DNA of 47,981 nucleotides from an uncultured virus (IMG/VR IMGVR_UViG_2061766007_000189). Its lineage: Duplodnaviria > Heunggongvirae > Uroviricota > Caudoviricetes. The stretch lies in IMG/VR virus record IMGVR_UViG_2061766007_000189; one strand, 5' to 3'. The translations under genes and the position numbers were made by a program. Positions 3,103-47,943 of the stretch are shown piece by piece. Under the pieces are notes generated by a model, which did no database searches, was not told where the DNA came from, and worked only from the letters and a program-made list of their open reading frames with translations. Every line of letters starts with the position of its first letter. Positions within the stretch are counted from its first letter, which is position 1.

Positions 3103-4173
3103 TTATTTTACTTTAATTTGGTTGAGCACCGTTAATGCTCTTTCAGATTCCTTTGGATAAAGATGTGAGTAAGTCTTTAACGTCATGCTTATATTAGCGT
3201 GTCCAAGACGTCTTGCTATTTCCTGAATGTTAATTCCATTGTTCGCTAAAAGACTTGCGTGAGAATGTCGAAAATCATGAATACGGATCTTTTGTACATT
3301 TGCTTTTTTGGCGAATCTTGCATTCGATTCTCTAAGTGTTCCGATACGAATTGGATTGGTTCCTCCACAAATAAAATAATTATTTGTAAAATCAGGCATT
3401 GCTTTACAACGAGCATAGTGTTCGTCAAGTACGATTTGCAACGGTTCAGGAATCTGAATAATGCGAATAGAACTCTTGTTTTTCGGAGGTGTTATCTTTA
3501 CTTTCACTCTTTCATTGTACGATTTGGTGATGTTTATTTCACTGTTTCGTACATCTTCCCAGTTTAAAGCAAGGATTTCACCTCTTCTCATTCCTGTATA
3601 AAAAGCAATACAAAAGAATGTGTAAATGCTCCAGCGTAATAATGTGTCGTTTTCCTCAGCGTATTTTTGTGCTTCTGAAATATACAGTTGAAATTCTTCG
3701 GGAGTATAAAAGTTAAATTTCTTAACTTCTTCTAACGGAGCTTTAAAGTTTCCTATACGTGCTAATGGATTTTGAGAAATGTATTCCATTTTGACTGCAT
3801 AATTAAGTACAGCAGAGAAATTCTTAAATATTTCCTTTTTTGAGCCAAAACTTTGCTCGCTTTCATTAACCTTCTGTTTCCACTGTTGCAAAGCGGGAAG
3901 GTTAAGACGATCCAGTCTAACATTTTCAAAGGTTGGTAATATATGGGTTTTTATTCTGCAGCTTTTTATCTGCTGTGTAGACTCCTTTGTTTCGTGCTTG
4001 GTGACTTCCATGTACTCTTCATAAAGTTGTCCGAAAGTCATTTTCTTTGTAGGTGTTTCTTCTTTGACGGAGTGACTTAGCTCCCTTTCAACCTGTTTCG
4101 CTTCATCAGCTCCGTAGGCTGTCCGTTCTATCTGCTTGTTGTTGCCGTAGCTGTCGGTGTAGTTGACACGCAC
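3103..4173 (-). CDS. int: Phage tyrosine integrase (5' end at gap)
   Basis: TGMRRGEILAL, HDFRHSHAS, LGHANISMTLKTYSH: the R-HxxR-H-Y catalytic set. Confidence 0.95.
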   Translation of the reverse strand: MRVNYTDSYGNNKQIERTAYGADEAKQVERELSHSVKEETPTKKMTFGQLYEEYMEVTKHETKESTQQIKSCRIKTHILPTFENVRLDRLNLPALQQWKQKVNESEQSFGSKKEIFKNFSAVLNYAVKMEYISQNPLARIGNFKAPLEEVKKFNFYTPEEFQLYISEAQKYAEENDTLLRWSIYTFFCIAFYTGMRRGEILALNWEDVRNSEINITKSYNERVKVKITPPKNKSSIRIIQIPEPLQIVLDEHYARCKAMPDFTNNYFICGGTNPIRIGTLRESNARFAKKANVQKIRIHDFRHSHASLLANNGINIQEIARRLGHANISMTLKTYSHLYPKESERALTVLNQIKVK

Positions 4174-4322
4174 ACGNNNNNNNNNNGGAGTGACTCAACT
4201 CACGTTCAAGCTGCTTTGCTTCATCAGCTCCGTATGCTGTCCGCTCGATCTGCTTGTTGTTTCCGTAACTGTCTGTGTAGTTGACACGCACACGGTACTT
4301 GATTTTACCGTCNNNNNNNNNN

Positions 4323-30143: not shown

Positions 30144-31558
30144 TTCTTTTCAACCTTGCCTTTATTTTCTGTACCTTGTAACAGCTCGCTTTCATTATCA
30201 GGTATAGTTTTACCCTTATACCCTGTTGCAAGCCTTGAAAGGCTGTCTGCGTTCATTTTCTTTAGCATTTCTGCCGCTTTGTCACCGTCACCGAGAATTG
30301 TTAAAATTTTTTCTGTAACATAATCGGGGTCAAGATATTCAGCCGCTTGCAGAACTGTTTGTACATCCTCGTTGACATTAATTAGCATTGACCGTGTAAA
30401 CGTTGGTTCGTCTTCAACCCCTGCAACTGCTAAAATACCTTGAATAAATTCAATTACGCAATATTCAAAATCATCACACTTAATATTCAACGGTTCGTAA
30501 GCTGCTTTTATTTCCGTAGCTGTTGCCGCTCCGCTTGAAATTGTTTCAACATCAAGAGCCATTGCATCACGGTATAAATCTTTTTCAAGCCGTTTCAAAA
30601 GCGTTTCACGAGCGTCAAAAGGCGGCTGAATGCTGTTAGGTTGTACTGTCACGGCGTCATCGGTAACAACTGCGTGCAGTTCACGGACACGTTTCAAAAA
30701 CTCAGCTAAATCAATATCGTCCATGCCGCCAGCGTTTTGCAACGTCCAGTAAATAAAACTTGCTTCGTCAATCGTGTTAGCAAATCCCGATTTTACCAAA
30801 TCAAAGCAATCAATCTGACTGCGAATATCATCTAAATCCGATTGATGTCGAGAATTTCCCCACATCGGAACAATGGGGAATGTTGGATAATTTTCGCCGT
30901 CATAAATCTCAACACCGCTTGCAATAGATGTACGAACTTTGAATTTATATGGTCTTTTCGGTTCTCTGACTTCGCCTGTGCCGTCTTTCCAAATAAACTC
31001 GGTATATCCGTCAATTTCGTATAATGTCGCTCTCAACGGCTTATTGGGAGCAATTTGCCAAAATCTTATCCCTGCTTTCATTGCTCCGTCTTCTTCATCG
31101 TAGAGCGGCACAAATTCAAGCAGTGTGAACATTTCAACGTGGTCAAGATTGAAAAAACCAAAAGCTTGACTATGCAAGGAAGCTTGTGTTGCTATTTTTT
31201 GTATTTGCGTATCAAATGGATATTTCTTATTACCTAATTTGTCGCTTGTATCGCTTTTGCTCCAGCCGACACCGTTACCGTTTAAGAACTGTACTTTTTG
31301 AGTTACAAATCTATGTAGAAAATTTGACGGCATTTTATAATTGGCACTCCAAATATCGGGGATTTTTTCGCCTGTTGCTTTGTAAAGCCATTTTTGAAAA
31401 CGTGTTATAGTGGTGTTTCTGCCCTCGTCATACTCTTTCCCGTCACGGGCTTTTGAATACAAATCGCTTGATTTATGTTGATTTATCGCCTGCAACACAA
31501 AGTCTATTCTGTTTTTCTCGTTATCGCCAACAGCGATTAAATCTTGATATGTGTACAT
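30140..31558 (-). CDS. Portal protein (SPP1-like)
   Basis: Size and position; FPIVP.WGN, ATATEIKAAYEPL. Confidence 0.9.
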   Translation of the reverse strand: MYTYQDLIAVGDNEKNRIDFVLQAINQHKSSDLYSKARDGKEYDEGRNTTITRFQKWLYKATGEKIPDIWSANYKMPSNFLHRFVTQKVQFLNGNGVGWSKSDTSDKLGNKKYPFDTQIQKIATQASLHSQAFGFFNLDHVEMFTLLEFVPLYDEEDGAMKAGIRFWQIAPNKPLRATLYEIDGYTEFIWKDGTGEVREPKRPYKFKVRTSIASGVEIYDGENYPTFPIVPMWGNSRHQSDLDDIRSQIDCFDLVKSGFANTIDEASFIYWTLQNAGGMDDIDLAEFLKRVRELHAVVTDDAVTVQPNSIQPPFDARETLLKRLEKDLYRDAMALDVETISSGAATATEIKAAYEPLNIKCDDFEYCVIEFIQGILAVAGVEDEPTFTRSMLINVNEDVQTVLQAAEYLDPDYVTEKILTILGDGDKAAEMLKKMNADSLSRLATGYKGKTIPDNESELLQGTENKGKVEKK

Positions 31559-32286
31559 TATGTATCACCTAAAATTCTCCATTTTGCAATCTCAAAATAA
31601 TGTTCGTCAAGTTCAAAACCTATGAAATTACGGTTTGTATTTACACACGCAACGCCTGTACTTCCACTTCCCATGCAGTTATCAAGCACCGTTTCGCCCT
31701 CATTGGTGTATGTCTTTATGAGATATTCCAACAAATCAACAGGCTTTTGTGTCGGGTGTATGGGCTTATCTTTGGAACAGTTGCATTGTGCAAATTTTAT
31801 CACATCAACAGGATAACGGCTTCCGTCCTCACAAATTGTTTCACACAAATCCTGTTTTCCATAATTTGTACTTGTCTTATTATGTGCTGCACGATAACAT
31901 TTATGACCGAATGTTTTTTGCGGATTATAAGTCGGGAGTTTATCATAAAAAATCAAGATGTTTTCGTGTGCTTTCAACGGCATTTTGTGAGAATTTAAAT
32001 GCCCTGTCCCTTGTGCTTTCTGCCATATCCATTCATACCTAAACCATTTTCGATTTGATACAATCAAGTCAACGCAAAACGGCATTTGCGAAAACAGTAC
32101 AATAGCTGCATTTGCTTTTATAATCCGTTTGTACTGTTCCCATAGTGCCTGCAAGTCTATTTTTTTATCCCATTTATTATTTGTTGTTCCATACGGCAAA
32201 TCACATAAAATCATATCAATTGAATTATCGGGAATATCTTTCATTAATTCTAAACAGTCGCCTTGCATTAATTTTGTGTTCGCCAT
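31558..32286 (-). CDS. DNA N6-adenine/N4-cytosine methyltransferase (beta class)
   Basis: DLPYG, HPTQKP, VLDNCMGSGSTG. Confidence 0.92.
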   Translation of the reverse strand: MANTKLMQGDCLELMKDIPDNSIDMILCDLPYGTTNNKWDKKIDLQALWEQYKRIIKANAAIVLFSQMPFCVDLIVSNRKWFRYEWIWQKAQGTGHLNSHKMPLKAHENILIFYDKLPTYNPQKTFGHKCYRAAHNKTSTNYGKQDLCETICEDGSRYPVDVIKFAQCNCSKDKPIHPTQKPVDLLEYLIKTYTNEGETVLDNCMGSGSTGVACVNTNRNFIGFELDEHYFEIAKWRILGDT

Positions 32287-32305
32287 ACAATTACCTCGCC
32301 GCTTC

Positions 32306-33511
32306 CTAATAAATATCCCCATAAGCCCGTTTTACTCTTGCAATGTGTTTGGTTTTTACAAAATATCTCATACTGTCCATTAAATGGTCGTTCTCTTTTA
32401 ACGGTTTTTCTGTTCCCTCTTCCCACACGTAAGATTCACATTCGTTTCTCCAATTTTTGAGTGTAGGTGAAAATTTAATCAGCCCTCTGTGCATTGCCGA
32501 CGCTGTTTCTCTTATTCCATCTTCAACAGCATTATCAGCCGAACGGACTTTGCTCCAATTCTTTTTCTTGAGTAAAGCAATAAAAGAAGCCGCCGAGGGG
32601 TCGATAATCGTTTCAAGCTTTTCGCCCGGCAAAATATACGGTTCTACAAATTCATCCATATCTTTTCCGTATTCATCATCGGTTTTCTGCCTGTTGGTCG
32701 CTCTGCCACTGTAATAGTATTCATTTACCGCATACCATACACCGCCGTGTTTTTCCCAATATAACGCTGCAAATGGGTTCTGTGTACCATAGTCGATTGA
32801 TAAACATTTAGCTTCTATCGGAGTGTTGGGAGCTTCTGCAATTGCTTCTTGATACATTGGATATATTAAACCCTCTGCAAGCACCCATAAACCGAGGATA
32901 AACCGTTCATAAAAAACACCTGTGTACTCACGTTTAATGTTTTCCACATAATCTCCAGGCAATGTGGAATTATCGTCAAGTAAAAATTTTACATCAAGCA
33001 TATCAAGGCTATCTTGCCTGTCGATATAGTCCGTCTTTAACCAATGTGATGGACTATCAGGGTTAGTTGTTGCTATTAATTTAGCTTCAGGCAAACGCAA
33101 ACGAGATAATAACATTGTAAAAAAATCTCTGGGGAACTGCGTAAGCTCGTCACAGTATGCACCTTGTAAAGTTAAACCTCTTATTTTTGCTTCACTCCGT
33201 GCATCATTTGCACCCTCTAAAAAAATTTTTCTGCCGAAAAGGTTGCCCTCTTTTGCCGACAAGCTAAAGGTAAAATTACTTTCTCCGACAAGTTCTTGCA
33301 AGAGCAACAGGCAGTTTCTTTTCAGAGTTGTTAGCGACTTTGCACACATCATATACAGCTTATCTTCGGGCATCGTTTTAACCCAAAACGCCCATAGAAC
33401 AAGCGAAATCCACGTTTTTCCGCTTGAAACACTTCCCTCTAAAAGGTTAATCCTTTTCAGTTGGTTCGTCTGCCAGAGTGCCATTAGCTGTAGTTGTTTC
33501 TGCGTATACAT
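32306..33511 (-). CDS. terL: Terminase large subunit (PBSX type)
   Basis: GSVSSGKT Walker A, AYCDE Walker B, TTNP, IDYG, NDHLMDSMRY. Confidence 0.95.
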   Translation of the reverse strand: MYTQKQLQLMALWQTNQLKRINLLEGSVSSGKTWISLVLWAFWVKTMPEDKLYMMCAKSLTTLKRNCLLLLQELVGESNFTFSLSAKEGNLFGRKIFLEGANDARSEAKIRGLTLQGAYCDELTQFPRDFFTMLLSRLRLPEAKLIATTNPDSPSHWLKTDYIDRQDSLDMLDVKFLLDDNSTLPGDYVENIKREYTGVFYERFILGLWVLAEGLIYPMYQEAIAEAPNTPIEAKCLSIDYGTQNPFAALYWEKHGGVWYAVNEYYYSGRATNRQKTDDEYGKDMDEFVEPYILPGEKLETIIDPSAASFIALLKKKNWSKVRSADNAVEDGIRETASAMHRGLIKFSPTLKNWRNECESYVWEEGTEKPLKENDHLMDSMRYFVKTKHIARVKRAYGDIY

Positions 33512-34677: not shown

Positions 34678-34706
34678 ATTATATCACATTAAATGAATTC
34701 TGTCAA
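34678..34706 (-). promoter_or_regulatory. Consensus sigma-A promoter for the HNH gene
   Basis: TTGACA-17-TATAAT with TG; the -35 box overlaps the MTase stop codon. Confidence 0.75.
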
Positions 34707-35881
34707 TGCCCCGCTATCTCTGTGTATGGTATCTTTTTCCCATCCTTAATCAAGAACACATCTGCATCCGAACCCTTAAAGTTTATATATCTTTGCAAAA
34801 TCACGGAAACATATTTGGGATCGAGTTCAACCATATAGCATTTCCTGTTTAGCTGTTCACAGGCTATTAGTGTGCTACCACTACCACCGAAACAGTCTAA
34901 TACTATCTGCTGTTTATCTGTTGTATGTCTTATTGCGTTTGCTGATAATTCAACAGGTTTTTGTGTCGGATGTTCATAATCATTCGCATTGTCTTTGCCT
35001 ATGCTCCACACACTACCTATACGCTTTTCTCGGATTTCCTCGCCATTATTGGCACATAAAATCACTTCATAATCAGTTGAAAATGTATGTTTCAAATCTC
35101 CAATGCCACCGCCACCTTTATCCCATATAACCATATTGGATAATTCAAAATATTGTTTGAACAGTGGCAACCATTTATCCAAGACTTTCCAAGTGGTACA
35201 TATCATCACAAATCCTTTTACTCTTCCGAGCAAGTTTGGGAAAAAGTTTAATATTTTATCGTCATTCTCCAATACATCAAATTTCTCTGATTTTGTTCGC
35301 ATATTGGACTGATAATTGTAGCCGTATGGCGGATCGGTAAACACCATATTAGCCTTTACCCCATCCATAAGCCTATCAATAACCGCAACATCCGTAGAAT
35401 CTCCGCATATAAGTTTGTGGTCGCCTAACTGCCACAAATCGCCAATTTTACATCTTGTTTCTACTTCTTCGGGAACTTCATCTTCTACAATTTCTTCTGT
35501 GGTTTTGTCATCGTCAAAATTCAAATCAAATCCAAAATCTGACATATCAATATCAAAAATGCCGTCAAGCTCTTCACCGAGTAAATCAAAATCCCATTCG
35601 GCAAGCTCCCCAACCTTGTTGTCTGCAAGCCTAAAAGCCTTTATTTGCTCGTCATTTAAATCATCGGCAATCACGCACGGAACTGTTTTCAAGCCGAGCT
35701 TCTTTGCGGCTTTTAGCCTTGTGTGACCGCAAACAACATTGTTTTCCTTGTCAATCACAATCGGAACTTTAAAGCCGAACTCACGAATAGAATTTGCAAC
35801 AGGGTCAACCGCTCCGTCATTTTTTCGAGGGTTGTTCGCATATGGAATCAATTTATTTATATCAACATCAATTAAGTTCAT
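34703..35881 (-). CDS. ParB-N domain fused to an N6/N4 DNA methyltransferase
   Basis: PYANNPR.N...SI.EFGF..PIVID...GHTR; DPPY, HPTQKP, DCFGGSGST. Confidence 0.92.
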   Translation of the reverse strand: MNLIDVDINKLIPYANNPRKNDGAVDPVANSIREFGFKVPIVIDKENNVVCGHTRLKAAKKLGLKTVPCVIADDLNDEQIKAFRLADNKVGELAEWDFDLLGEELDGIFDIDMSDFGFDLNFDDDKTTEEIVEDEVPEEVETRCKIGDLWQLGDHKLICGDSTDVAVIDRLMDGVKANMVFTDPPYGYNYQSNMRTKSEKFDVLENDDKILNFFPNLLGRVKGFVMICTTWKVLDKWLPLFKQYFELSNMVIWDKGGGGIGDLKHTFSTDYEVILCANNGEEIREKRIGSVWSIGKDNANDYEHPTQKPVELSANAIRHTTDKQQIVLDCFGGSGSTLIACEQLNRKCYMVELDPKYVSVILQRYINFKGSDADVFLIKDGKKIPYTEIAGH

Positions 35882-35987
35882 ACAAACACCTTTTTTAATT
35901 TTATTTGCACAAAACCGCCCTTTCTGACCTTTAGGGCGGTTTATACAATTAATCCAAAATAAAGAGAAATCCAAAAATGTAAACACG

Positions 35988-36062
35988 TGGTAGCAAGAGT
36001 AGGATTTGCACCCACAATCTCCCAATTATAAGTCGGGTGTTTTGCTGTTAAACTATCTCGCC
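35988..36062 (-). tRNA. tRNA-Ile(UAU)
   Basis: 75-nt cloverleaf GGCGAGA/TCTTGCT, anticodon loop CT-TAT-AA, encoded CCA; atypical D loop (no GG) and T loop (TGCAAAT). Confidence 0.8.
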
Positions 36063-36148
36063 ATATTTGCAGGCTGGTTTGAAACGCAGCCTGCATTTTT
36101 ACACCAGAAAGAAGATAATATGAACGACTGACTACCGCCCATGATTTA

Positions 36149-36182
36149 ATTATACTACAACTAAAACGGACAAAGCGGACAA
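36149..36182 (-). promoter_or_regulatory. Putative activator-dependent late promoter
   Basis: Two TTGTCCG direct repeats in place of the -35 box, then TATAAT; same layout at 46812-46844. Confidence 0.65.
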
Positions 36183-36226
36183 CTTTTCGTGTTGTCTGCT
36201 TTGCCCTTTGTGCTTATTCGCATGCA

Positions 36227-36394
36227 TTAATCGCCCAATACTTTCGCCTTTACCCGTTCGTACAGCTCTTCTACCTCTTTCGGCGAGAGAGTCGTTCGCA
36301 CTACCTTTACCAACTGTTCTTTCGTAAGCCAAATGCCTTTTTTGGGACTTCCAATCAGGTATAATGTTGGCTTGCTATTTTTATTATTATTCAT
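36227..36394 (-). CDS. 55-aa hypothetical protein
   Basis: MNNNKNSKPTLYLIGSPKKGIWL...; start overlaps the upstream stop. Confidence 0.5.
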   Translation of the reverse strand: MNNNKNSKPTLYLIGSPKKGIWLTKEQLVKVVRTTLSPKEVEELYERVKAKVLGD

Positions 36395-36692
36395 TTTTCA
36401 CCCGCTTTATAACATCATCGGCGGTAAGCCAGCCTGCAACTGAGTTTCCATCTTTCTCCTCGTCAACGATATCGCCGTATATCTCAAGCAACCCTTGTTC
36501 ATATCCGTATGAACCGTAGTGGCAAATCGCATCCCATTTAAAACAGCCTTCATTATCATAAACAACCACTTGATTGCGCCCAAGATCTATTTCATTGCCG
36601 CCAGGGAATGCCACAATGTTGGTTTCCTTAATTCGTTCGTAATTTGCTCCGCTCTTGTCCAGATACTCAACTAATTTTTCCATTTCCGTCAT
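36387..36692 (-). CDS. Hypothetical phage protein
   Basis: Coupled ORF; WDAIC..GSYG..GLLEI. Confidence 0.65.
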   Translation of the reverse strand: MTEMEKLVEYLDKSGANYERIKETNIVAFPGGNEIDLGRNQVVVYDNEGCFKWDAICHYGSYGYEQGLLEIYGDIVDEEKDGNSVAGWLTADDVIKRVKNE

Positions 36693-36697
36693 TGCCT

Positions 36698-37057
36698 TCA
36701 CCTCTCATTTTTCTGTATATACCTATGACACATCTTTCTAATGCTTTCCTGCGTATTCCCACCGCCCACTCTCTGAGCGATATCCCTCCATCTCCGCCCT
36801 TCGATGTAGTGCATTCTCAGCATTACTCCAACATACTCGTCACACCGCTGTAAATAGACTTCTACAGCGTTCAGTCTTTGCTTTAGGTATTCTATATCCT
36901 TTTGCAGTTTATCACGCTCGTTTCGGCTTATTTCGGCTTTTTCGGGGTCTTTGTTTTCGATAGCCTGAATTTTCAGAGTTAACTCATCAAATTCATCTTC
37001 AAGCAGCAATTTTCGCCCTTTAAGCTTTCGATACTGCCGTAATTGGTTAATGGTCAA
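36698..37057 (-). CDS. RinA/ArpU-like late transcription activator
   Basis: MT..QL.QYR, coiled coil, C-terminal HTH YIEG..W..IA..VGG.NT..S.RK. Confidence 0.7.
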   Translation of the reverse strand: MTINQLRQYRKLKGRKLLLEDEFDELTLKIQAIENKDPEKAEISRNERDKLQKDIEYLKQRLNAVEVYLQRCDEYVGVMLRMHYIEGRRWRDIAQRVGGGNTQESIRKMCHRYIQKNER

Positions 37058-37061
37058 AATA

Positions 37062-37292
37062 TCAACCCTCTTTCTCTTTGATAGCTTTCGCCCTCTCCTC
37101 TATCCCCTTTGCGATACACAGACATTCCATTTTTTGCTCAAAGAGCATGGATAAATCCTTTTCAAGCTTCATTCGTTCAATGTTGCCGAGCTTTGCTTTA
37201 CGCTTCGTTTTTGTTTGCTGGATGCGGTGCTCGACTGCCTCTGCTTCCTGTCGGTATTCGTTCGCCCAGTTAAAATAGTCTTCCGAAGTCAT
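37062..37292 (-). CDS. Hypothetical protein
   Basis: Coupled ORF; homologous tail at about 47213-47303. Confidence 0.6.
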   Translation of the reverse strand: MTSEDYFNWANEYRQEAEAVEHRIQQTKTKRKAKLGNIERMKLEKDLSMLFEQKMECLCIAKGIEERAKAIKEKEG

Positions 37293-37606
37293 TTATTTAA
37301 CCAACCTCTTTCCTTGTAAGCTCTGTAAAAACCGTAGCTATAATTCGTTCCGTGTTCGGCATTGTAAGCACGTCTTTCAAACTCAAGAAGAACCAAAGGG
37401 TCATTAGACATTTTCTTGTTTCGACCTCGTTTTTTCGCCGTTTGAATCTTCTCGTCAAGGTTCTTGATGTCAATTCCCCTAGGTCTGCCCGGTTCTTTCT
37501 CTTTCAGTTCTCTTTGGTATTGTCGGTTCTTCTCCCGGCACTTGTTGCACATTCTGTAAACGGTATTTTCGTTAAACTCTTTTCGACATCTGGTGCATAT
37601 TCTCAT
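37289..37606 (-). CDS. Small Zn-finger hypothetical protein
   Basis: CTRC...CNKC; YNAEHGTNYSYG. Confidence 0.6.
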   Translation of the reverse strand: MRICTRCRKEFNENTVYRMCNKCREKNRQYQRELKEKEPGRPRGIDIKNLDEKIQTAKKRGRNKKMSNDPLVLLEFERRAYNAEHGTNYSYGFYRAYKERGWLNK

Positions 37607-37623
37607 TTTATCACCTTTCCCTT

Positions 37624-38415
37624 TTACAATCCGATGTTTCCGTAAGTTTTTTTGAGCCATTCAAAAAACTTCGGGTACATCTGCTTATAATGCCACAACA
37701 TACCATTTCTGATAATCGCCGTGTTGTATAGCATTGTAATCTCGTTACGGTTTACCTGCCTATCGATATACGGATAATCGTAAATAGACAAATATTTTAA
37801 ATTATTGCTAAAAATATAACTCCATATATCAATATTAGTAAAATTAAGCAGCGGACAGCAAGTAACCGATTGTCGATTTTCGGTTTGATAAATCGCACCT
37901 TTTTGATTTAAAACAATCCGCCTACGCTTGCTTTCGTCTTTTCGCATTCCGATTATATTTAAATCAATGTTATTTTCTTCTTCAAACTCTTTCGACTTTT
38001 TTACATAATCATAATTAGTTTGATTGAAAATACGCTTTTCTTCTTCGTTTTCTGGGAACAGCGTGAATCTGCCACACTGCTCCCAACAGTCAACCTCGCC
38101 CAAACAATCTATAATTTGATATTTTAATCCGTGTAAGTCGGCATAATATTTCAGCAATTCAATGTTTTCCTCGGGCGTTTCGACATCTGTACAAATGCCA
38201 TATTTAAAAAACATCAACGTACCTTTAAACCCTGCCTTTACAGCGATGTCTATCAATACCACACTATCCTTTCCGCTGCTAAAGGATAGTGCAGCATTGG
38301 TTGAATCATCTAACGCTGTCTTGACAGTTTCGGTCGCTAATTTTACTTTGCGTTTAAAATTAGCCATTTTAGCCGAAATAAGGTACATCTCCTTATCGTC
38401 GTTAGATAGGTACAT
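37624..38415 (-). CDS. cysH: CysH/PAPS-reductase-like PP-loop protein of the type IV-B locus
   Basis: SFSSGKDS PP-loop, GMRKDES.RR, PL..F...DIW.YI..NNL.Y..IYD; start overlaps the csf3 stop. Confidence 0.88.
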   Translation of the reverse strand: MYLSNDDKEMYLISAKMANFKRKVKLATETVKTALDDSTNAALSFSSGKDSVVLIDIAVKAGFKGTLMFFKYGICTDVETPEENIELLKYYADLHGLKYQIIDCLGEVDCWEQCGRFTLFPENEEEKRIFNQTNYDYVKKSKEFEEENNIDLNIIGMRKDESKRRRIVLNQKGAIYQTENRQSVTCCPLLNFTNIDIWSYIFSNNLKYLSIYDYPYIDRQVNRNEITMLYNTAIIRNGMLWHYKQMYPKFFEWLKKTYGNIGL

Positions 38416-39076
38416 AACATAACCTCTGATTTATAGTTTTCCAGTACGGCGGTCTTATTGCATACTCCATAATTGGACAGTCATAGGTCTTGTCTGCTTT
38501 TTCAACCTCGATTGGTCGCATAAGACCGTATTTGGGATGCTCAGTTGTATAATCCTCCTCGATTTCTTCAACGTCCCACCTGTCAACGATTCCGAAGCCC
38601 ATAGCAGTCTTTTTGCCAACACCAATCATAAGGTTTAACAGTTCTTCGATTTTATCTTTTTTGCCAACAGCATAAAAAGTGAGGATTCCGTTTTTAACTG
38701 TTCGGATAAGTTGTGGGTTGCGATAAGCTCTATACAAGCCTACACTGTCGCTTATTATCCCCTTGTCCATATCGAGATAGTCTAATTTATCGCTAGCAAA
38801 AAAGTCGGGACGTTTGTTGTAATGCTCTACAATCTTGTCTATCTCTTGATAAACTGCCTTACTTGCCGCCCATCTGTTGCCCTCTAGATGTACAAGCGGT
38901 AAACCAACATATCCGATTTGCTCCGGCTTATACACTCCCTCCAGAACGTGAGGAGCGTGTTTCAAAAACCAAGCGTGATAAAGTATACTGTCAAACATCA
39001 AGATTCCGTCTGCACTGCTAAATCTGCCATCTAAAAGATGAGCTGTAATCTTAAGCGGTACGCATTTACTTGGCAT
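38402..39076 (-). CDS. csf3: Csf3 (Cas5-group RAMP)
   Basis: D.IL...W, LPL, WAAS, G.YRAYR.P, FYAVG...IEELL, G-rich loop GVGKKTAMGFG.V..W, RPI, RPPYW. Confidence 0.85.
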   Translation of the reverse strand: MPSKCVPLKITAHLLDGRFSSADGILMFDSILYHAWFLKHAPHVLEGVYKPEQIGYVGLPLVHLEGNRWAASKAVYQEIDKIVEHYNKRPDFFASDKLDYLDMDKGIISDSVGLYRAYRNPQLIRTVKNGILTFYAVGKKDKIEELLNLMIGVGKKTAMGFGIVDRWDVEEIEEDYTTEHPKYGLMRPIEVEKADKTYDCPIMEYAIRPPYWKTINQRLCYVPI

Positions 39077-39923
39077 TTTTACCACTTCCCAAAATATTAA
39101 TATATTCTGCACCCTCGGATTTGATAAAATCCGAGTAAAGGTTAATAAGTTGCTCTACCTCTTTTGATATTGCGACTTCGCCATTATTGACAGAGATTAA
39201 ATTATCTCCAACGACAGCATTAAATGTGCCAAAGCCCTTACTTGACATACCTCCGAGCTTGGGAAGCTTAAACCATTCGGCTAAAGCGGAGTAAAACGCA
39301 CCCATTTCAAGGTCAGTTGCATTATTAAAAAAATAAATATCCTGCACAAACTCCGTACCCTCTGCCATATACTGCACAGCAAAACGCATTTGTGTACTCG
39401 CTTTCGCTTTTTTATCTTCTTCCGGGTCTGTCATATACCCGGCAAGTATATCGTCTTTGCCGTCATCGGTACGTGTAAACTCAATCTCGTCAATCAAGTT
39501 TTTCCAGCTAACCTCTGTCATTTTTTCACCTAACATCTCATAGGTCTCTTTGACGAGAGGATAGAGATTGCCGACAATCATCTTGCCCGCCATAATCATA
39601 TCACCCAAGCCGCCGCCAAAAAGCGACACAAACGGGAAATGTTCTCTTACTGATTTAGCCTTAGCGACATCATTCTTCATAGTGCCGTTGAGATTTCCGC
39701 CGCTGAAAAGTACATTAAAAATCTCTTTGTTGACCTTGACACCAAGAGTATCGAGAAGATACTTAGCACCATTATCTCTGAGTGTGCCTCTTACGCTGTT
39801 TGCCGTGATAATCGGCAAGCGACCGTTAGAGGTCTTAATTGTCTGAAAATAGCTACCTGTGCTTGCTGTTTCGCCAATATGAGATACCGGAGCAGTTGTT
39901 GTATACTTAATCCTCAATTTCAT
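39066..39923 (-). CDS. csf2: Csf2 (Cas7-group backbone)
   Basis: APVSH.GE, P.I.ANSVRG.LRD, LFSGG, SLFGG, TR.DD, QM......AEGT, LGGMSSKGFG. Confidence 0.9.
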   Translation of the reverse strand: MKLRIKYTTTAPVSHIGETASTGSYFQTIKTSNGRLPIITANSVRGTLRDNGAKYLLDTLGVKVNKEIFNVLFSGGNLNGTMKNDVAKAKSVREHFPFVSLFGGGLGDMIMAGKMIVGNLYPLVKETYEMLGEKMTEVSWKNLIDEIEFTRTDDGKDDILAGYMTDPEEDKKAKASTQMRFAVQYMAEGTEFVQDIYFFNNATDLEMGAFYSALAEWFKLPKLGGMSSKGFGTFNAVVGDNLISVNNGEVAISKEVEQLINLYSDFIKSEGAEYINILGSGKNAK

Positions 39924-40341
39924 CTTCAATTCCCTCCATCTTTTCTCTCTGAATACGTTCTCTTACAAGCATTGTGAGTAACATACCTTCATTCTCAAAA
40001 ATCGAAAGCAGGTCATCATCTTCAAAAATATCAATTTTGAAGTCCTTGACATCTGCCGACACAATAACGCTTCCGTCCGGCTGCATTACAAGCCCGCTCT
40101 CATCTTTAAGATATGCAGGCTTAACACTACTAATGTTGCCAAGCTTGCAAAAATGATTTACAAACTCCGCTACATTAGTCGCCTTAAGAGCTGCACCTCT
40201 TATGTAACTTGTAAACCTATTCCACGTTTCAAGCCCGTTGAGGCTACTCTGCTGATTCCTGCTGCGATAACACGCATAAAGAATCAACGCTGCCTTTCCT
40301 CGTTCTGCTGATTCAGTAGTAAATCCAAACTGCATAAACAT
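39907..40341 (-). CDS. Cas11-like small subunit
   Basis: About 144 aa, helical (W..F...IR.AA.KA....EF...FC), between csf1 and csf2, overlapping both. Confidence 0.65.
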   Translation of the reverse strand: MFMQFGFTTESAERGKAALILYACYRSRNQQSSLNGLETWNRFTSYIRGAALKATNVAEFVNHFCKLGNISSVKPAYLKDESGLVMQPDGSVIVSADVKDFKIDIFEDDDLLSIFENEGMLLTMLVRERIQREKMEGIEDEIED

Positions 40342-40994
40342 TCTTCCTCCGTTTTTTTCAATTTTTGCCCGCAATAAAGCGGGATCTGTATTTCGCGGCT
40401 TTTTTGTAACTCTGAGTTTAAAATACTCAGAACCTTTTCGCCTAAAGAAAAACCCAGTTTTTGCATGACCGCAAACGGAATTTCACCGTTTGACAATGCT
40501 GTTTTGCTCGCACCCAAAGTTATTAAACTCTCAACAAATCCGAACAACTGTTTCATTCGGTCGGGAGTAGTGTAAATTACTTCTGTTTCGAGGTTCACGG
40601 CATATCTATCCGCACTATAATTAACCTGCGAGCGGTAAAACAAGTGCTTTTTTTGGCTTGTCGTTATGATGAATCTAAACGGCGGATTTTGCCGTTTGCA
40701 CAACTCGTCTTTAAGCTCTCTAACATTGATAAGTCTAATTCCATTACAATCGACAATGTAATTGTAAAAGTACAGACTAAAAAGTTTTGAACACTCAGGG
40801 CAAATATACTCGCCAATGTAAGCGTAATCCGTAAAATTAGAGCTAATTATTTTTTTAGCTTTAACACCTTCTTTTTTGCTTTGATTGCATATAGGGCAGT
40901 CAAACTCTACATTTTCCACCGGATATTCTTTGATTTTTACCAGTTTTACAATGTCATTCCCTTTGCCGTCTCTGGTTTTGTATTCAATTTCCAA
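40284..40994 (-). CDS. csf1: Csf1 (Cas8-like Zn-finger subunit)
   Basis: CPIC...S.NFTDY...CPEC, PPF.F.I..SQKKHLFY...VN; probable TTG start after AGGAGG. Confidence 0.78.
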   Translation of the reverse strand: MEIEYKTRDGKGNDIVKLVKIKEYPVENVEFDCPICNQSKKEGVKAKKIISSNFTDYAYIGEYICPECSKLFSLYFYNYIVDCNGIRLINVRELKDELCKRQNPPFRFIITTSQKKHLFYRSQVNYSADRYAVNLETEVIYTTPDRMKQLFGFVESLITLGASKTALSNGEIPFAVMQKLGFSLGEKVLSILNSELQKSREIQIPLYCGQKLKKTEEECLCSLDLLLNQQNEERQR

Positions 40995-41059
40995 TAATTC
41001 ATTCCCTCCTAAAATCGCCGTAAATCCCCTGTAAGCCGTTTTACTCTCAAAAGGTAAAA

Positions 41060-41329
41060 TTACTCGCTTAAATTGTTTTCGCCCAAATTTGGGGTATTCT
41101 CGCTTGTTTTGGAGGGGTTCTCGGTGTATCGGGTGTTCCACTTTTCTAAAACTCTATCTTTGCAGCATTCCAATTCGCCCCAAGTGCATAGTCCTGCAAT
41201 TATATCTAACCTTTCAACATTACATCTGTCGCACTTGATTTTTACATAAATCCTCTCCGCAGATGAATTTATTAGCAAGAAAGGCTTTGCCCCACAAAAC
41301 GGGCACGGCTTCAACTTAACTTTACTCAT
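41060..41329 (-). CDS. Lar-family (restriction alleviation-like) Zn-ribbon protein
   Basis: KLKPCPFCG...I.C..C...WN.R. Confidence 0.65.
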   Translation of the reverse strand: MSKVKLKPCPFCGAKPFLLINSSAERIYVKIKCDRCNVERLDIIAGLCTWGELECCKDRVLEKWNTRYTENPSKTSENTPNLGENNLSE

Positions 41330-41424
41330 TGCTATCATCCTTTCCGACCTGAAGCGCAGCCATAAACAGCACGCCAAAAACCACTCCAAGGGTTACTCCA
41401 AAAATTAAACCTAATGTAAACGCT

Positions 41425-41697
41425 TTAATCATTGCTATCACTCCAATCTATCGCTTGACCGCACCATTTGCAAAATTTATAGCCACTGTGCAAAGAACCT
41501 TTATTTGTTAGTTGCTTGTTGCAATTAGAGCATCTAACAGTAGATGTGGTTATTATCACTTTCTTCGGTATCTGCTTTTCAAGTGCTTTAATAGTAAAAT
41601 CAAGTGTTTTTTCCTGCGTTCTTTTCACTTCGGCACTCAGGTCTTCGGTGTCAATCACAATGCACTTTAAAACGTTAATTGCTTCTTCAATCCTCAT
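41425..41697 (-). CDS. Small Zn-ribbon phage protein
   Basis: ALEKQIPKK...C..C...FC..CGQ.IDW. Confidence 0.7.
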   Translation of the reverse strand: MRIEEAINVLKCIVIDTEDLSAEVKRTQEKTLDFTIKALEKQIPKKVIITTSTVRCSNCNKQLTNKGSLHSGYKFCKWCGQAIDWSDSND

Positions 41698-42116
41698 TTT
41701 CTCAATCTACTTGTTTTCCCATAATGCTGGAGCGTTTGAAAAATCTGCTGTACTCCAACGGTAAATTGGTGTGTACATTGTATCACTCTCCTTTCTGNNN
41801 NNNNNNNCCTGCTTCTTCAATCGTCATTTTCTCACCCTCTTAAATCTCTTTCCATAATGCTTTCTTGACAAAATCCAGTCGACATACTCCATAAATGACG
41901 GAGCGTTTGAATAATCTACTGTACTCCAACGATAAATCGGTGTGTACATTGTATCACTCTCCTTTCTGCGTGACCGTATAACCCTCGTAAGCAATCACCG
42001 CACGAAAATATTCAAGGTTTCCTACCCATTCGCAATAATTATCATCAACACATTCACAAGAAGCTTCATGCTCGCTGTTAAAATACGAACAATATCCACG
42101 GTAATGNNNNNNNNNN

Positions 42117-43170
42117 TATTTTACCCATTGCCCATGTTTCGGCTGAACACGCGGTAAATTTTCAAGCATTTCGAGAATATCCCTATCTCTTGCACACGCA
42201 GTAATTTCACCGTCCCACTCTTGAACTGCTATTGGTTCTACCGTTTCAAGGTAGGCGTCAATCGCCGCCTGTCTGCTAATTAAATCATCTCTCATTTTTG
42301 GTTTCCTCCGTCATATCGTTTCTGAACATTTCCTTCTGTCGGTGCAGATACTTTTCCTCTCCAAAATCTTTTATTTGGTTTTCGTGTGTTGAAAGCACCA
42401 TCATTCCACCATGAGCAGCAACTATAAAGCCGTATTTCTCGGCTAATTTCCCGATTTCTTCCCAGTGGCTGTCTAATTCCTTACGTTTGCTCTCATTTAT
42501 CATTTTTCAAATCCTCCAACGCTCTCTCGGCTTCTTCTCTTGTTAAAAATACCTTTTCCCCAATTTCAAACCAATAGAAATTTTTGGATTCGCAGTTAAT
42601 TAAAGCTGCTGTTTTCGATATAGAAATTCCCTCAACTGTTTGCTCGTGAATTTCATAATGCTGCTTGCATACCTCATAGAGTTTATTACCAATCTTGCAC
42701 GGCAGCTCAACAGCGTTTACAGGCTCTATAGCTTCTGCAACTCTAAGAGCGTCCCACAATCCGTTTTTATAATCATCCGTTTTTTCGCTGCGGCACAACC
42801 CACAAATCAAAGCTTCTTCTAATCTGCGCTTGCTTATCAGTTCGCTCATTTTTCTACCTCGTGATTTCTTATTATTAACTCTCTTATCACTTCACAGCTT
42901 CCTCGGGATATCGCTTTTTCACACGGCAGACATTCACCGCTACAAATCGGCACTCCCATTGAGTCATTACGCCAGTAACATTCTTTNNNNNNNNNNATTA
43001 TTTTTTCGTTCCTTTCTGTTCAAAACAAACTCTTCAAATTCTAACCGTTCATAATCCGACAGCGGGCACCACCTCGGGATATTTTTATATTTCTTGTAAC
43101 GTTCGTAAAGTTCCCGATATTTTGGCTTGGTGATGTCCACTTGATACCCATATTTGTTATTCAATATCAC
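42117..43170 (-). CDS. Run of small coupled hypothetical early genes (42117-42295, 42285-42503, 42493-42849, 42997-43170)
   Basis: Overlapping start/stop codons; DLISRQAAID and VELPCKIG...VFLTREEAE phage motifs. Confidence 0.6.
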
Positions 43171-43250
43171 AGCTCCTTANNNNNNNNNNCGCATAGCGTG
43201 ACTTTATGACAACATTTGTAATATTTCCATCGCCTATTTGNNNNNNNNNN

Positions 43251-44556
43251 GTTAATTTCGTCAAGTACAATCTGAATGAGCTTTCTAAGGAATTGCTTCA
43301 AACGAATTTCAAGCTTATTGCACTTCAAATCAAGCAGTGCATAGCGTGATTTTATAACAACATTTGTGATATTTCCGTCACCTATCTGAGCGGAATTAAA
43401 GCCCATTCCAAAGCGATAAATATTCTTTTCGTCAAGGTCAAGCTTTGTCTGCCTTGCCTGATATGGAATATCAATTGTGCGAATATCGACAGTGCCGCCG
43501 TCATCCACACCAATTGCTTTTTTGACTTTAATGTTCTGTATCATTTGGCTAATATCGTCGCCCTGAAATCCGGTAACAACATAAAGAGCGTCCGTAAAAT
43601 CCTGCAAATTATTTGACAGTGAACAAGCCATTAAATCATAATCGTCAATCAAAGCTTTTATAGGTTTTAAGCCGCTGAATTGCTTTTTACCGTTGTCAAG
43701 ACGAAAAAACGGAATAAACCCGAACCCTTTGCCCGACTGTCTGCCTTTTTTGTCGGTGTAAATCGTGTGCGGACGTGGGTTCATTTCGACTGTGTCATCC
43801 GTAAACAANNNNNNNNNNCTTTAAGCCGCTGAATTGCTTTTTACCGTTGTCAAGACGGAAAAACGGAATAAACCCGAACCCTTTGCCCGACTGTCTGCCC
43901 TTTTTATCGGTATAAATCGTGTGCGGACGTGGGTTCATTTCGACTGTGTCATCCGTAAACAATTCGCCCTCACGTGCAGAAACATAAAAATAAATGTTTT
44001 CCTTATCCCAAACCTGAACACGGGTTATTTTCTTTTTGCCCTTGTCAATGCGGTCAATATACCAAAAAATTATGTATTCGCAGCCGTCATCGGTATCCTT
44101 TGCGCGAACCTCAACAACACCCATTGATTCGGCGCATTCAAAGCGTGTTTTGCCGTCTTCGCCGCTCACAGCATACATGTATTCAAAGCCTTTTGAAACT
44201 GTCCCGACAAGCAGCTCGTAAAGCTCGGAATAAAAATCATCATCAAAATAATTATCAAGCTCCGTCTGCAATTCGGGCAAATCCGATCGAATAGGATTAT
44301 CAGCACCCGACAGCATATATTGAACCTGTTGGTCAACAAGCTCGGTAAAGAACGGATGTGAAATACGAATATTGCTTTTGAATTTATCTTCTTGGAGAAT
44401 GCCGTCACCGTCATAATAGTAAATTTTATAATTGAGAATATCGTGTTCGCCCTCGTAATATTTTAAGCCTATTCGGGCAAACTGCTTTTTTTCGCTCGTT
44501 TTGTCATCGTTTATAAGTGTTATAATCTCGTCCGTACTCAGCAACTTTTCACCCCC
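43251..44556 (-). CDS. Second SPP1-like portal protein (fragmented, different phage)
   Basis: YYEGEHDIL, HPFFTELVDQ..QY, K.LIDDYD, ITNVVIKSRY.LLDLK. Confidence 0.85.
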
Positions 44557-44566
44557 NNNNNNNNNN

Positions 44567-44767
44567 TGTTCGGTAAGTTTTCCGAACAACAAGCAAATTT
44601 GCATCGGGATATTTCATCATATTTGAAATAAACCAAAGAGCCGCCGTTTTCGACTTTTTGCTTGCGCGGCTGCCCTTTACAACTCGATATCTGCCTTTGT
44701 AATGCCAAAACTTGTTATAGCCTTTTCCAACTGCTTTGGACAGTGAAACATTAATCATCTTCATTGA
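44567..44767 (-). CDS. Second PBSX-type terL, N-terminal fragment
   Basis: RYRVVKGSRASKKSKT...ANLLVVRK. Confidence 0.85.
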
Positions 44768-44863
44768 TATCACTCTCTATTACAACCGGAACTGCATCCG
44801 AAATATTTGTTTTCTCGTTGAACATACCGAACCTTTTACCGAGTAATTCAGCNNNNNNNNNNC

Positions 44864-45070
44864 CTAATATAACCAGCGGCTGCCGATATATCTTTCAAGT
44901 GCGTAACGCATAGCGTCCATTAAATGGTTAAAATCATCAATAGGCTTGTTTATCGTGTTTCCAAATTTATCTTTTTCAAACGTATAATTGCTAATTTCAG
45001 TAAGAAAATTTACGCATCGAGGGTGAATAATTATTTCCAAATCCTGTATCCACTGTACGCCATACATAAT
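44864..45070 (-). CDS. Second terL, C-terminal fragment
   Basis: IHPRC.NF..EI.NY...P.DDFNHLMDAMRYA. Confidence 0.85.
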   Translation of the reverse strand: MMYGVQWIQDLEIIIHPRCVNFLTEISNYTFEKDKFGNTINKPIDDFNHLMDAMRYALERYIGSRWLY

Positions 45071-46457
45071 NNNNNNNNNNTACTCAACAACCTCCTGAGC
45101 ATCTGCCGTGCGTTCGTTATGGATTTTTGTAAGTCGATCATCTATGTACTCTCTCATTTCGGGTATATATTTTGAGGTAGGTTTTTGTAGGTTTTTTTNN
45201 NNNNNNNNNNNNNNNNNNNNNNNNNNNNNNNNNNNNNNNNNNNNNNNNNNNNNNNNNNNNNNNNNNNNNNNNNNNNNNNNNNNNNNNNNNNNCGTTCGGA
45301 TCGTTGAGGTACTCCTCGCAAAAACGCTTTTGTTTCTCGTTTAATTTCGGCATTACCTCACCTCTTTAATACGTGAAGATAGTTATCTGTTGTCTTACTT
45401 TTATTACCCGACCNNNNNNNNNNAATTGAATTACCGAATTTATCTTTTTCAAATGTGTAGTTGCTGATTTCAGTAAGAAAATTTACGCATCGTGGGTGAA
45501 TAATTATTTCCAAATCCTGTATCCACTGTACGCCATACATNNNNNNNNNNNNNNNNNNNNNNNNNNNNNNNNNNNNNNNNNNNNNNNNNNNNNNNNNNNN
45601 NNNNNNNNNNNNNNNNNNNNNNNNNNNNNNNNNNNNNNNNNNNNNNNNNNNNNNNNNNNNNNNNNNNNNNNNNNNNNNNNNNNNNNNNNNNNNNNNNNNN
45701 NNNNNNNNNNNNNNNNNNNNNNNNNNNNNNNNNNNNNNNNNNNNNNNNNNNNNNNNNNNNNNNNNNNNNNNNNNNNNNNNNNNNNNNNNNNNNNNNNNNN
45801 NNNNNNNNNNNNNNNNNNNNNNNNNNNNNNNNNNNNNNNNNNNNNNNNNNNNNNNNNNNNNNNNNNNNNNNNNNNNNNNNNNNNNNNNNNNNNNNNNNNN
45901 NNNNNNNNNNNNNNNNNNNNNNNNNNNNNNNNNNNNNNNNNNNNNNNNNNNNNNNNNNNNNNNNNNNNNNNNNNNNNNNNNNNNNNNNNNNNNNNNNNNN
46001 NNNNNNNNNNNNNNNNNNNNNNNNNNNNNNNNNNNNNNNNNNNNNNNNNNNNNNNNNNNNNNNNNNNNNNNNNNNNNNNNNNNNNNNNNNNNNNNNNNNN
46101 NNNNNNNNNNNNNNNNNNNNNNNNNNNNNNNNNNNNNNNNNNNNNNNNNNNNNNNNNNNNNNNNNNNNNNNNNNNNNNNNNNNNNNNNNNNNNNNNNNNN
46201 NNNNNNNNNNNNNNNNNNNNNNNNNNNNNNNNNNNNNNTGCTTTGAGTTTATCCTTTTCGGAGGGTCTTTTCTGGATCTTTTCAATTTTCTGAGAACCTT
46301 TGCCGACGCCTTTTAATACTATTTCTTNNNNNNNNNNTTGTTGACAAACTTTTTCTTAGCATTGAATTTATGCTGAATTATGGCTTTTTTTACAGCACAA
46401 AGCCGCACTACCTGACCAATAGTGCGGCTTGCTTTTGCGATAAGAATGTAAACAGAA

Positions 46458-46529
46458 TTGCGGGGGTCGGACTCGAACCGACAGCCTCAAGGTTATGAGC
46501 CTAGCGAGCTACCTTTGCTCTACTCCGCT
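46458..46529 (-). tRNA. tRNA-Met(CAU), initiator-like
   Basis: 72-nt cloverleaf, CT-CAT-AA loop, GTTCGAGTC T arm, 1:72 mismatch, A11-U24; no encoded CCA. Confidence 0.8.
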
Positions 46530-47208: not shown

Positions 47209-47313
47209 AATATCAACCCCTCTTTCTCCCTGATCGCTCTTGCTTTTTCTTCAAGTTCTTTCGCAATGCTTAAACACTCGATCTTTTGAGAATAAAACAT
47301 CGANNNNNNNNNN

Positions 47314-47585
47314 TTCAAAATCAAATTTTACTCGCATTTTTTCCCCAAAATGCTCTTTATTATGGCATTCGTGACACACAAGTTCAAGGTTATCGTGATT
47401 TAGCGTAATGTCGGGATTATTTACATTTTGTGGTGTGATATGCACCTTGTGATGTACTATGTAACCCGGTGCAGTATGGCAGTGCTGACATAAACCTCCG
47501 TCAATTCCCTTTCGGCTTTCGATAAAAGACTGCCTGCATTTCTGCCACTGTTTAGATTTATAAAATTGTTTTGCATAGTCTTTCA
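47314..47585 (-). CDS. Packaging-associated HNH endonuclease fragment
   Basis: FYKS..W..CR...GLC..C...VHHK...NLE.VC..CHNKEH. Confidence 0.85.
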
Positions 47586-47595
47586 NNNNNNNNNN

Positions 47596-47943
47596 GGCTT
47601 TAAGCTTATCTTTTTCAGACGGCTTTTTATGAACCTTTTCAATTTTCTGAGAACCTTTGCCGACGCCTTTTAAAACTATTTCTTCACTTTCGGACTCTCC
47701 GCGCATGACGGATGTGAGATACTCCATAATTTCCTGTGTATCAGCGGTACGTTCATTTTTAAGAGTTTCAAGTTTTTCCTCAATATACGCTTTAACTTCG
47801 CTTTTCTTCGTTAATTTCTGTCCTATTGTATAAGCGGTTTTTTCGGAATATCCTGCCCTTATAGCCGCCTGAGTAGCATTCAAGTCAATGAGGTATTCCT
47901 CACAAAAACGCTTTTGTTTCTCGTTCAATTTCAATTTAGGCAT
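47596..47943 (-). CDS. terS: Terminase small subunit (second phage, truncated at gap)
   Basis: KQKRFCEEYLIDLNATQAAIRAGYS.KTA. Confidence 0.92.

Follow-up and report, generated by a model that had tools for sequence, protein, structure and literature searches.

To our knowledge, type IV-B is the only CRISPR-Cas subtype for which neither a function nor a guide is known. A 2026 paper still calls its biology unclear (PMC13676074), and no solved function for it was found in the main texts of the literature searched. Type IV-B systems are described as residing on plasmids and sometimes on prophages, Firmicutes included, and as almost always linked to a cysH gene (PMC7038947). Type IV systems have also been reported from prophages and lytic phages, and a type IV-B system from an archaeal virus (PMC10848311). 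The complex of Mycobacterium sp. JS623 binds heterogeneous RNA, and the account in PMC8175902 leaves the role of its CysH unassigned. Here we describe a five-gene operon of this kind (csf1, cas11, csf2, csf3 and a cysH-like gene) in the DNA of a tailed phage from the cattle gut. The DNA is the IMG/VR record IMGVR_UViG_2061766007_000189, a scaffold of 47,981 nucleotides (nt) that is called the window below.

On sequence grounds, it is near certain that the five genes make up a genuine, selectively maintained type IV-B effector module on a tailed phage. Phage- and prophage-borne type IV-B systems have already been published (PMC7038947, PMC10848311), and the operon in the window is a further case. 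The finding leaves existing knowledge unchanged because phage carriage of the subtype is in print. What it offers is a well-sampled clade (415 Csf2 homologues and 46 loci) of compact proteins (236, 144, 285, 224, and 263 amino acids [aa]) that is rich in natural variants from the guts of cattle and humans. A close relative that lacks cysH, referred to as L003, provides a natural comparison for what the enzyme adds.

Gene content and family assignment

The five genes are co-oriented on the minus strand between positions 37624 and 40994, and every gene overlaps its successor (by 58 nt for csf1/cas11, 17 nt for cas11/csf2, 11 nt for csf2/csf3, and 14 nt for csf3/cysH-like). All five reading frames are intact and their starts are coupled. 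Start codons were picked from ribosome-binding sites and homologue lengths; the mechanical list of open reading frames (ORFs) contained longer frames. A first-pass annotation, made from the sequence alone, had proposed five overlapping genes of 236/144/285/224/263 aa, and the ribosome-binding sites and homologue lengths uphold it. Profile searches with PADLOC, NCBIfam, and Pfam likewise match each ORF to the family that it had been given, and the match of csf2 to repeat-associated mysterious proteins (RAMPs) lies above the Pfam cut-off.

The csf1 gene (40284–40994, minus strand, 236 aa) codes for a type IV large subunit with a four-cysteine zinc finger (PADLOC typeIV_Cas8, 1.4e-32; TIGR03114, 6.3e-8) and starts with a TTG codon preceded by AGGAGGG. 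Its homologues are 225–236 aa long, one of them carries the JGI name Csf1, and P0232 is an identical 236-aa protein. All 26 sequences compared share cysteines C33, C36, C65, and C68, as expected from the zinc finger noticed earlier in this protein. No HD or Cas10 model in Pfam, NCBIfam, or PADLOC matched Csf1. A sliding-clamp peptide at the Csf1 C-terminus was considered and rejected; the sequence there is ...LDLLL... within this clade and ...INSIL... in other clades, with no recognisable clamp motif and no conservation.

The small subunit is encoded by cas11 (39907–40341, minus strand, 144 aa), which starts with an ATG codon preceded by GGAGGA. It matched PADLOC typeIV_Cas11 (4.4e-32 and 1.4e-31), and searches of Pfam, NCBIfam, and PDB sequences gave no match. 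The start of csf2 (39066–39923, minus strand, 285 aa) is preceded by GGAGGG, and its product is a Cas7 backbone RAMP (PADLOC typeIV_Cas7, 3.3e-62; TIGR03115, 3.8e-25; Pfam RAMPs [PF03787], 35.3 bits versus a cut-off of 22.1). Among PDB sequences, Csf2 matched the type IV-C Cas7c (11fs, 5.4e-10), the type IV-B Csf2 (7jhy, 3.3e-8), and also type IV-A Csf2 chains. The Cas5 RAMP is encoded by csf3 (38402–39076, minus strand, 224 aa; PADLOC typeIV_Cas5, 1.1e-38; TIGR03116, 1.5e-14). Csf2 and Csf3 resemble phrog_22746 (1.2e-81) and phrog_34599 (1.5e-70), respectively. The last gene (37624–38415, minus strand, 263 aa) codes for a CysH-like PP-loop ATP pyrophosphatase of the CasCysH type (PAPS_reduct [PF01507], 3.3e-18; 66.8 bits versus a cut-off of 22.5).

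Bit scores against the NCBIfam equivalog models are below the curated cut-offs for Csf1 (32.5 versus 140), Csf2 (88.9 versus 130), and Csf3 (54.2 versus 140), cut-offs that are thresholds of particular models rather than features of subtype IV-B. These scores indicate that the clade is divergent. The features of the subtype that are present are Csf2, Csf3, a small zinc-finger Csf1, Cas11, and an adjacent cysH-like gene, with no helicase, Cas6, adaptation gene, or array seen at the locus. A PADLOC scan of 60 ORFs from the window gave no match to a Cas6, Cas1, Cas2, DinG, or RecD model. The window contains no direct-repeat array of at least 18 nt with spacing of up to 200 nt, no CRISPR-like tandem array, and no mini-array, in agreement with the earlier description of the operon as array-less and without cas6, cas1/2, or dinG. 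These negative results cover an incomplete phage genome; a twin record is estimated to be 63% complete, and the window has 47 gaps.

Linkage to a tailed phage

The stretch from 18863 to 41797 is without any N and carries, on one strand, genes for Dit, the tape measure, major tail, major head, and portal proteins, TerL, and TerS (all PHROGs matches). Two HNH genes and two DNA methyltransferase genes are on the same strand of this stretch. The operon was originally noted as sharing a gap-free contig with terminase, capsid, and tail genes, and it does so here. GC content is even across the stretch, and that of the operon is in line with that of the phage arm. A second IMG/VR contig of 25,348 bp has 100% identity in all of the genes that were compared, a span running from the Lar-like gene upstream of csf1 to the head genes, and may come from the same sample. 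Public cattle-gut runs from independent studies yielded a 4,485-nt contig that spans 37105–41463 with 27 differences and, in run X9, a 4,920-nt contig that joins 36165–41322. The lineage that carries the operon is one of tailed phages of ~35–42 kb that infect gut and rumen Firmicutes.

Distribution, conservation, and selection

Homologues are numerous and nearly all are unnamed metagenome proteins. There are 415 for Csf2 (E ≤ 1e-5), 317 for Csf1, and 111 for the CysH-like protein, and for Csf3, the 570 cluster representatives matched at E ≤ 1e-3 fall to 13 at E ≤ 1e-30. We compared 46 related loci (11 from IMG/VR, one from a metagenome-assembled genome [MAG], and 34 metagenome contigs) from cattle gut and, by the record names of some, human gut. 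Many of these are near-duplicates, and the counts given here are therefore of contigs and not of independent lineages. In profile searches, the order csf1-cas11-csf2-csf3 is kept wherever the contig is long enough. Of the 38 loci that reach sufficiently beyond csf3, 37 have a cysH-like gene next; the other eight end earlier. In the 46 loci, a large terminase was found in the flank of 20; as detection was limited to relatives of 29 query proteins, this count is a minimum. The flanking terminases span at least three PHROG families, which indicates that the cassette moves between phage backbones. A blastn search with the operon found no match among 50,697 phage records. In a sample of 401 genomes of the family to which the L003 MAG belongs, the Csf2 clade occurs once, in the L003 MAG itself.

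L003 is the closest relative of the operon (Csf2 is 92% identical) and comes from an uncultured Ruminococcus MAG. Compared to L003, the ratio of nonsynonymous to synonymous divergence (dN/dS) is 0.068 for csf2 and 0.077 for csf3. The proportion of nonsynonymous differences (pN) is 0.12 for csf1 and 0.09 for cas11, with synonymous sites saturated in both. Judged by these values, the operon is under purifying selection. The proportion of synonymous differences (pS) is uneven along the operon, at 0.75–0.82 (saturated) in csf1 and cas11 and 0.46–0.50 in csf2 and csf3, a pattern suggestive of recombination within the operon.

A few loci depart from the common arrangement. Csf2 and Csf3 occupy a single 548-aa frame in L012 (9914–11566), either a fusion or a lost stop, and unlike L012, its sister loci L010, L011, and L013 have csf2 and csf3 as separate genes. 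In L046 (2818–4369), the ~70 nt that separate csf1 from csf2 give no match to Cas11, and the Csf2 match begins at residue 62; a deletion or a faulty assembly may account for this. A 115-aa helix-turn-helix ORF lies between csf3 and the cysH-like gene in L008 (11515–11862) and also in L027 and L047, and the same three loci have a sigma-factor gene just upstream of csf1.

The CysH-like enzyme

An alignment of 28 CysH-like proteins was used to identify invariant residues. The PP-loop reported in the first-pass annotation is among them (S46, G48, K49, D50, and S51; SxGKDS), as are the G156, R158, E161, S162, and R165 of a GxRxxESxxR motif and the residues G173, C187, P188, D196, Y212, and P248. 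No invariant cysteine occurs in the C-terminal 75 residues of the aligned proteins. ECGLH is the canonical motif of the sulphonucleotide-reducing C-terminal cysteine. Because this catalytic cysteine is missing, the enzyme is predicted not to be a sulphate reducer. The published CasCysH is described as an ATP alpha-hydrolase that is unable to reduce sulphonucleotides (PMC8175902), and the combination of a PP-loop with no C-terminal cysteine fits that description.

An AlphaFold (AF2) model of the protein has a predicted local distance difference test (pLDDT) score of 87.1 and a predicted template modelling (pTM) score of 0.86. The Foldseek matches to this model include TtuA (1.1e-9) and CysH (1.1e-8), with template modelling (TM) scores of 0.5–0.57 overall, as well as CysD, APS reductase, the PAPS domain of FAD synthase, TilS, and NcsA. 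The fold therefore matches PP-loop enzymes that include the tRNA base modifiers TtuA, TilS, and NcsA. A C-x5-C-x3-C pattern (C108, C114, and C118) is present in 21 or 22 of 22 close homologues and in none of six distant ones. The three cysteines may hold a metal or an iron-sulphur cluster; TtuA, which ranks first among the structural matches, is an iron-sulphur enzyme.

A close relative without cysH

At L003 (9537–10871), the slot of cysH is occupied by a gene for a 229-aa protein whose start overlaps the csf3 stop, followed by a gene for a 214-aa QueC-like PP-loop enzyme (Pfam QueC, 1.1e-15; PADLOC QueC, 2.1e-18; and a weaker match to QatC) and then TerS. No gene of the CasCysH type was found in the whole 2.8-Mb MAG, the sole match being to a PP-loop at 22 bits. 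The 229-aa protein had no match in Pfam (even at E ≤ 10), PADLOC, PHROGs, NCBIfam, or PDB sequences, and a pattern scan of IMG/VR gave no relatives. Its single-sequence fold (pLDDT of 31) is too low in confidence to use. In a protein atlas, its neighbours are viral clusters, one with partial annotation as DpdA, and a TGT-domain fold (TM of 0.76); this placement is a lead to a DpdA- or TGT-like protein. DpdA and QueC-type genes are described together as a phage DNA-modification and anti-restriction module (PMC6884629). The pair is known from one locus and may be a neighbouring cassette rather than a functional replacement of cysH.

Genomic neighbourhood

A Lar-like restriction-alleviation gene is located directly upstream of csf1 (41060–41329, minus strand; PF14354, 35.5 bits and above the cut-off; TIGR03655, 4.2e-9; phrog_599), and L003 likewise has a Lar-like gene upstream of its operon. 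Downstream are three small genes, then a hairpin, a tRNA-Ile, and packaging genes. One of the small genes codes for a phrog_36-type transcriptional regulator (36698–37057, minus strand; phrog_36, 4.4e-8), the "late activator" of the earlier reading. As that reading had it, the operon lies within a co-directional block of small genes, which ends at this regulator and the hairpin ahead of the packaging and structural genes. The hairpin (36120–36142, minus strand) is terminator-like by a weak match in a consensus scan and may end the transcription unit of the operon; the scan found four sites, versus 4.4 in shuffled sequence. Relatives of the regulator follow the operon in L009–L013, L033–L037, and L050, and the order of operon, phrog_36 regulator, and terminase repeats in relatives.

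The tRNA-Ile (anticodon TAT; 35988–36062, minus strand) is situated between the regulator block and the ParB-methyltransferase gene. The terminase genes lie between two orphan DNA methyltransferase genes (31558–32322 and 34703–36025), one of which carries a ParB-like domain as a fusion. Both methyltransferase stretches are absent from a relative in run X5, whose contig skips 31559–32309 and 33553–35899.

The remaining window is a scaffold with 47 runs of N, mostly of 10 N. Gap-separated pieces at the left of the window carry an integrase, a CI-like repressor, an IrrE-like protease, Bro/ORF6N genes, and lysins. Because an integrase and a CI-like repressor are present on these pieces, a temperate lifestyle is plausible but not proven for the phage. 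Beside the integrase gene, a 118-nt unit occurs twice (80% match) at 4069–4295, across the N run at 4177–4186, and is probably the unmerged overlapping ends of two contigs. Past the gap at 41798, portal, TerL, and TerS/HNH genes occur a second time, in fragments (43167–45157 and 47251–47943). This second set indicates that the scaffold combines DNA from more than one phage. A tRNA-Met (CAT; 46458–46529, minus strand) is found in the right-hand fragment.

Proposed function and alternatives

The gene identities, conservation, phage linkage, and active-site motifs are observed, and the timing of expression, the assembly of a ribonucleoprotein (RNP), the substrate, and the benefit to the phage are inferred. 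Judging from gene order, the operon would be transcribed together with early or middle lytic genes. By analogy with the complex of Mycobacterium sp. JS623, Csf2 and Cas11 would form an RNA-bound filament, with Csf3 and the zinc-finger Csf1 as its caps. The CysH-like enzyme would bind ATP via its PP-loop and adenylate a substrate that is held or selected by the Csf complex, most plausibly a base or an end of a nucleic acid. AMPylation has been put forward for CasCysH in PMC8175902. The phage might use this activity against host defence or rival mobile elements. For the mechanism as a whole, from early or middle lytic expression and RNP assembly to adenylation and counter-defence use, we estimate a probability of roughly 0.3–0.4.

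Several observations weigh against this mechanism. Foldseek does not split the RNA modifiers from the sulphate enzymes (1e-9 versus 1e-8) among the matches of the CysH-like model. The conflict-type neighbours (the Lar-like gene upstream and the two orphan DNA methyltransferases downstream) and the QueC-like enzyme in the cysH slot of L003 speak in favour of it, but to argue from an anti-restriction neighbourhood is guilt by association. An Rfam scan of the window returned two tRNAs and nothing else, and no RNA partner was found. The position of the operon varies, and it adjoins replication genes in L008, L014, L041, L042, and L047. Contigs from RNA libraries (X15 and X16) cover 41291–41794 only, with none on the csf genes, and are uninformative either way; these libraries also gave a few low-depth scraps with 92%–93% identity. 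Finally, a role in the lysogen is possible because two of five related virus records have a tyrosine integrase (four of the five, both integrase carriers included, are estimated to be 100% complete).

A role in the lysogen is unlikely, on balance, as an account of the operon. It holds that a Csf complex made from the prophage borrows host CRISPR RNAs (crRNAs) or other guides and silences phages or plasmids, in the manner of the transcription block of type IV-A, as a defence or a weapon against rival elements. The integrase and repressor in the window and the integrases of the two related records speak for it, as does the presence of a complete Cascade-like gene set, and type IV systems are thought to be active in conflicts between mobile elements (PMC7038947, PMC13676074). 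However, no array, Cas6, or helicase was found, and the operon has no standout promoter or terminator of its own and is packed head to tail with genes in the lytic direction. The JS623 complex is described as not loading co-expressed crRNAs (PMC8175902), and a guide-borrowing complex leaves the PP-loop enzyme unexplained.

The enzyme is also the difficulty for an anti-CRISPR sponge, in which the complex would soak up host crRNAs or guide RNAs during infection and so disarm the class 1 systems of the host. This idea has been published (PMC7038947, PMC8175902) and is in line with the heterogeneous RNA reported in the JS623 complex (PMC8175902) and with the position of the operon among genes of the counter-defence type (Lar and the orphan methyltransferases). 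However, a near-invariant CysH-like gene (37 of 38 loci) would have no part in it, and at ~3.4 kb, or about a tenth of a 35–42-kb genome, the operon would be a costly anti-CRISPR. The authors who raised the idea judged it unlikely (PMC7038947), and we consider it improbable.

The arrangement at L003 bears on a further reading. The apparent replacement of cysH by a coupled pair of a QueC-like gene and a DpdA/TGT lead would suggest that the complex directs base chemistry on DNA or RNA and not its binding or cutting. The Csf filament and a PP-loop partner would then be a nucleic-acid modification device for counter-defence, with a modular enzyme slot behind csf3, a generalisation that we regard as a long shot.

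That the operon is a decaying remnant without present function is contradicted by the selection data. The lack of an array, nuclease, or adaptation gene among those found would fit decay, but the five frames are intact with coupled starts, dN/dS is ~0.07, the catalytic and zinc-binding motifs are invariant, and the operon is kept across differing phage backbones, which makes this explanation very improbable. It is scarcely credible that the operon was misjoined to phage DNA in assembly and truly belongs to a plasmid or chromosome. In favour of such a misjoin, the scaffold is interrupted by 47 N runs and includes parts of a second phage, and no independent-run contig spans the operon to the terminase of the same phage (X5 contigs break near 37057–37105), but 18863–41797 is gap-free, an identical 25.3-kb IMG/VR contig (though possibly from the same sample) agrees over the compared locus, the 4.9-kb contig of run X9 joins 36165–41322, and TerL is on the same contig in 20 of the 46 related loci from other samples.

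Comparison with known type IV systems

Type IV-A (Csf1-Csf2-Csf3-Csf5 and DinG) shares homologues of Csf1, Csf2, and Csf3 with the phage. It is described with DinG, Cas6/Csf5, and an array and without Cas11 and CysH (PMC7038947), whereas no DinG, Cas6, or array was found in the window. The best match to the phage Csf2 among PDB sequences is from type IV-C (Cas7c, PDB 11fs, 5.4e-10), which also has Cas11 (PMC13676074). As described there, type IV-C is chromosomal and has a Cas10-like HD large subunit, in contrast to the 236-aa zinc-finger Csf1 and the cysH-like gene of the phage system. The type IV-B system of Fuxivirus, a virus of Bathyarchaeia, is like the phage system in that it is virus-encoded and its cysH-like gene adjoins csf3 (PMC10848311). 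It differs in belonging to an archaeal virus and in having a mini-array of two repeats and one spacer according to the same source, and none was found in the present window.

The system of Mycobacterium sp. JS623 (PDB 7JHY; PMC7937560, PMC8175902) has the composition of the phage operon, with csf1, cas11, csf2, csf3, and a cysH-like gene and, as described in those sources, no array, Cas6, or helicase. Its Csf2 was found with the phage Csf2 sequence at 3.3e-8, and its CysH-like enzyme, like that of the phage, is described as having a PP-loop and no catalytic cysteine (PMC8175902). The JS623 system is plasmid-borne and actinobacterial, whereas the carrier here is a small tailed phage of gut Firmicutes; the two systems are far apart in sequence, and the phage clade is known from genes alone. 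Skermania phage SPI1 (KR011061), an isolated tailed phage, was the only match to Csf2 among the 50,697 phage records. Its host is an actinobacterium, and its Csf2 is 29% identical to that of the window. Orf40–44 of SPI1, annotated as hypothetical proteins, reproduce the five-gene set in unchanged order, with PADLOC matches to Csf1 (1.9e-28), Cas11 (5.9e-15), Csf2 (1.2e-66), and Csf3 (2.1e-36) and a Pfam match to PAPS_reduct (1e-8).

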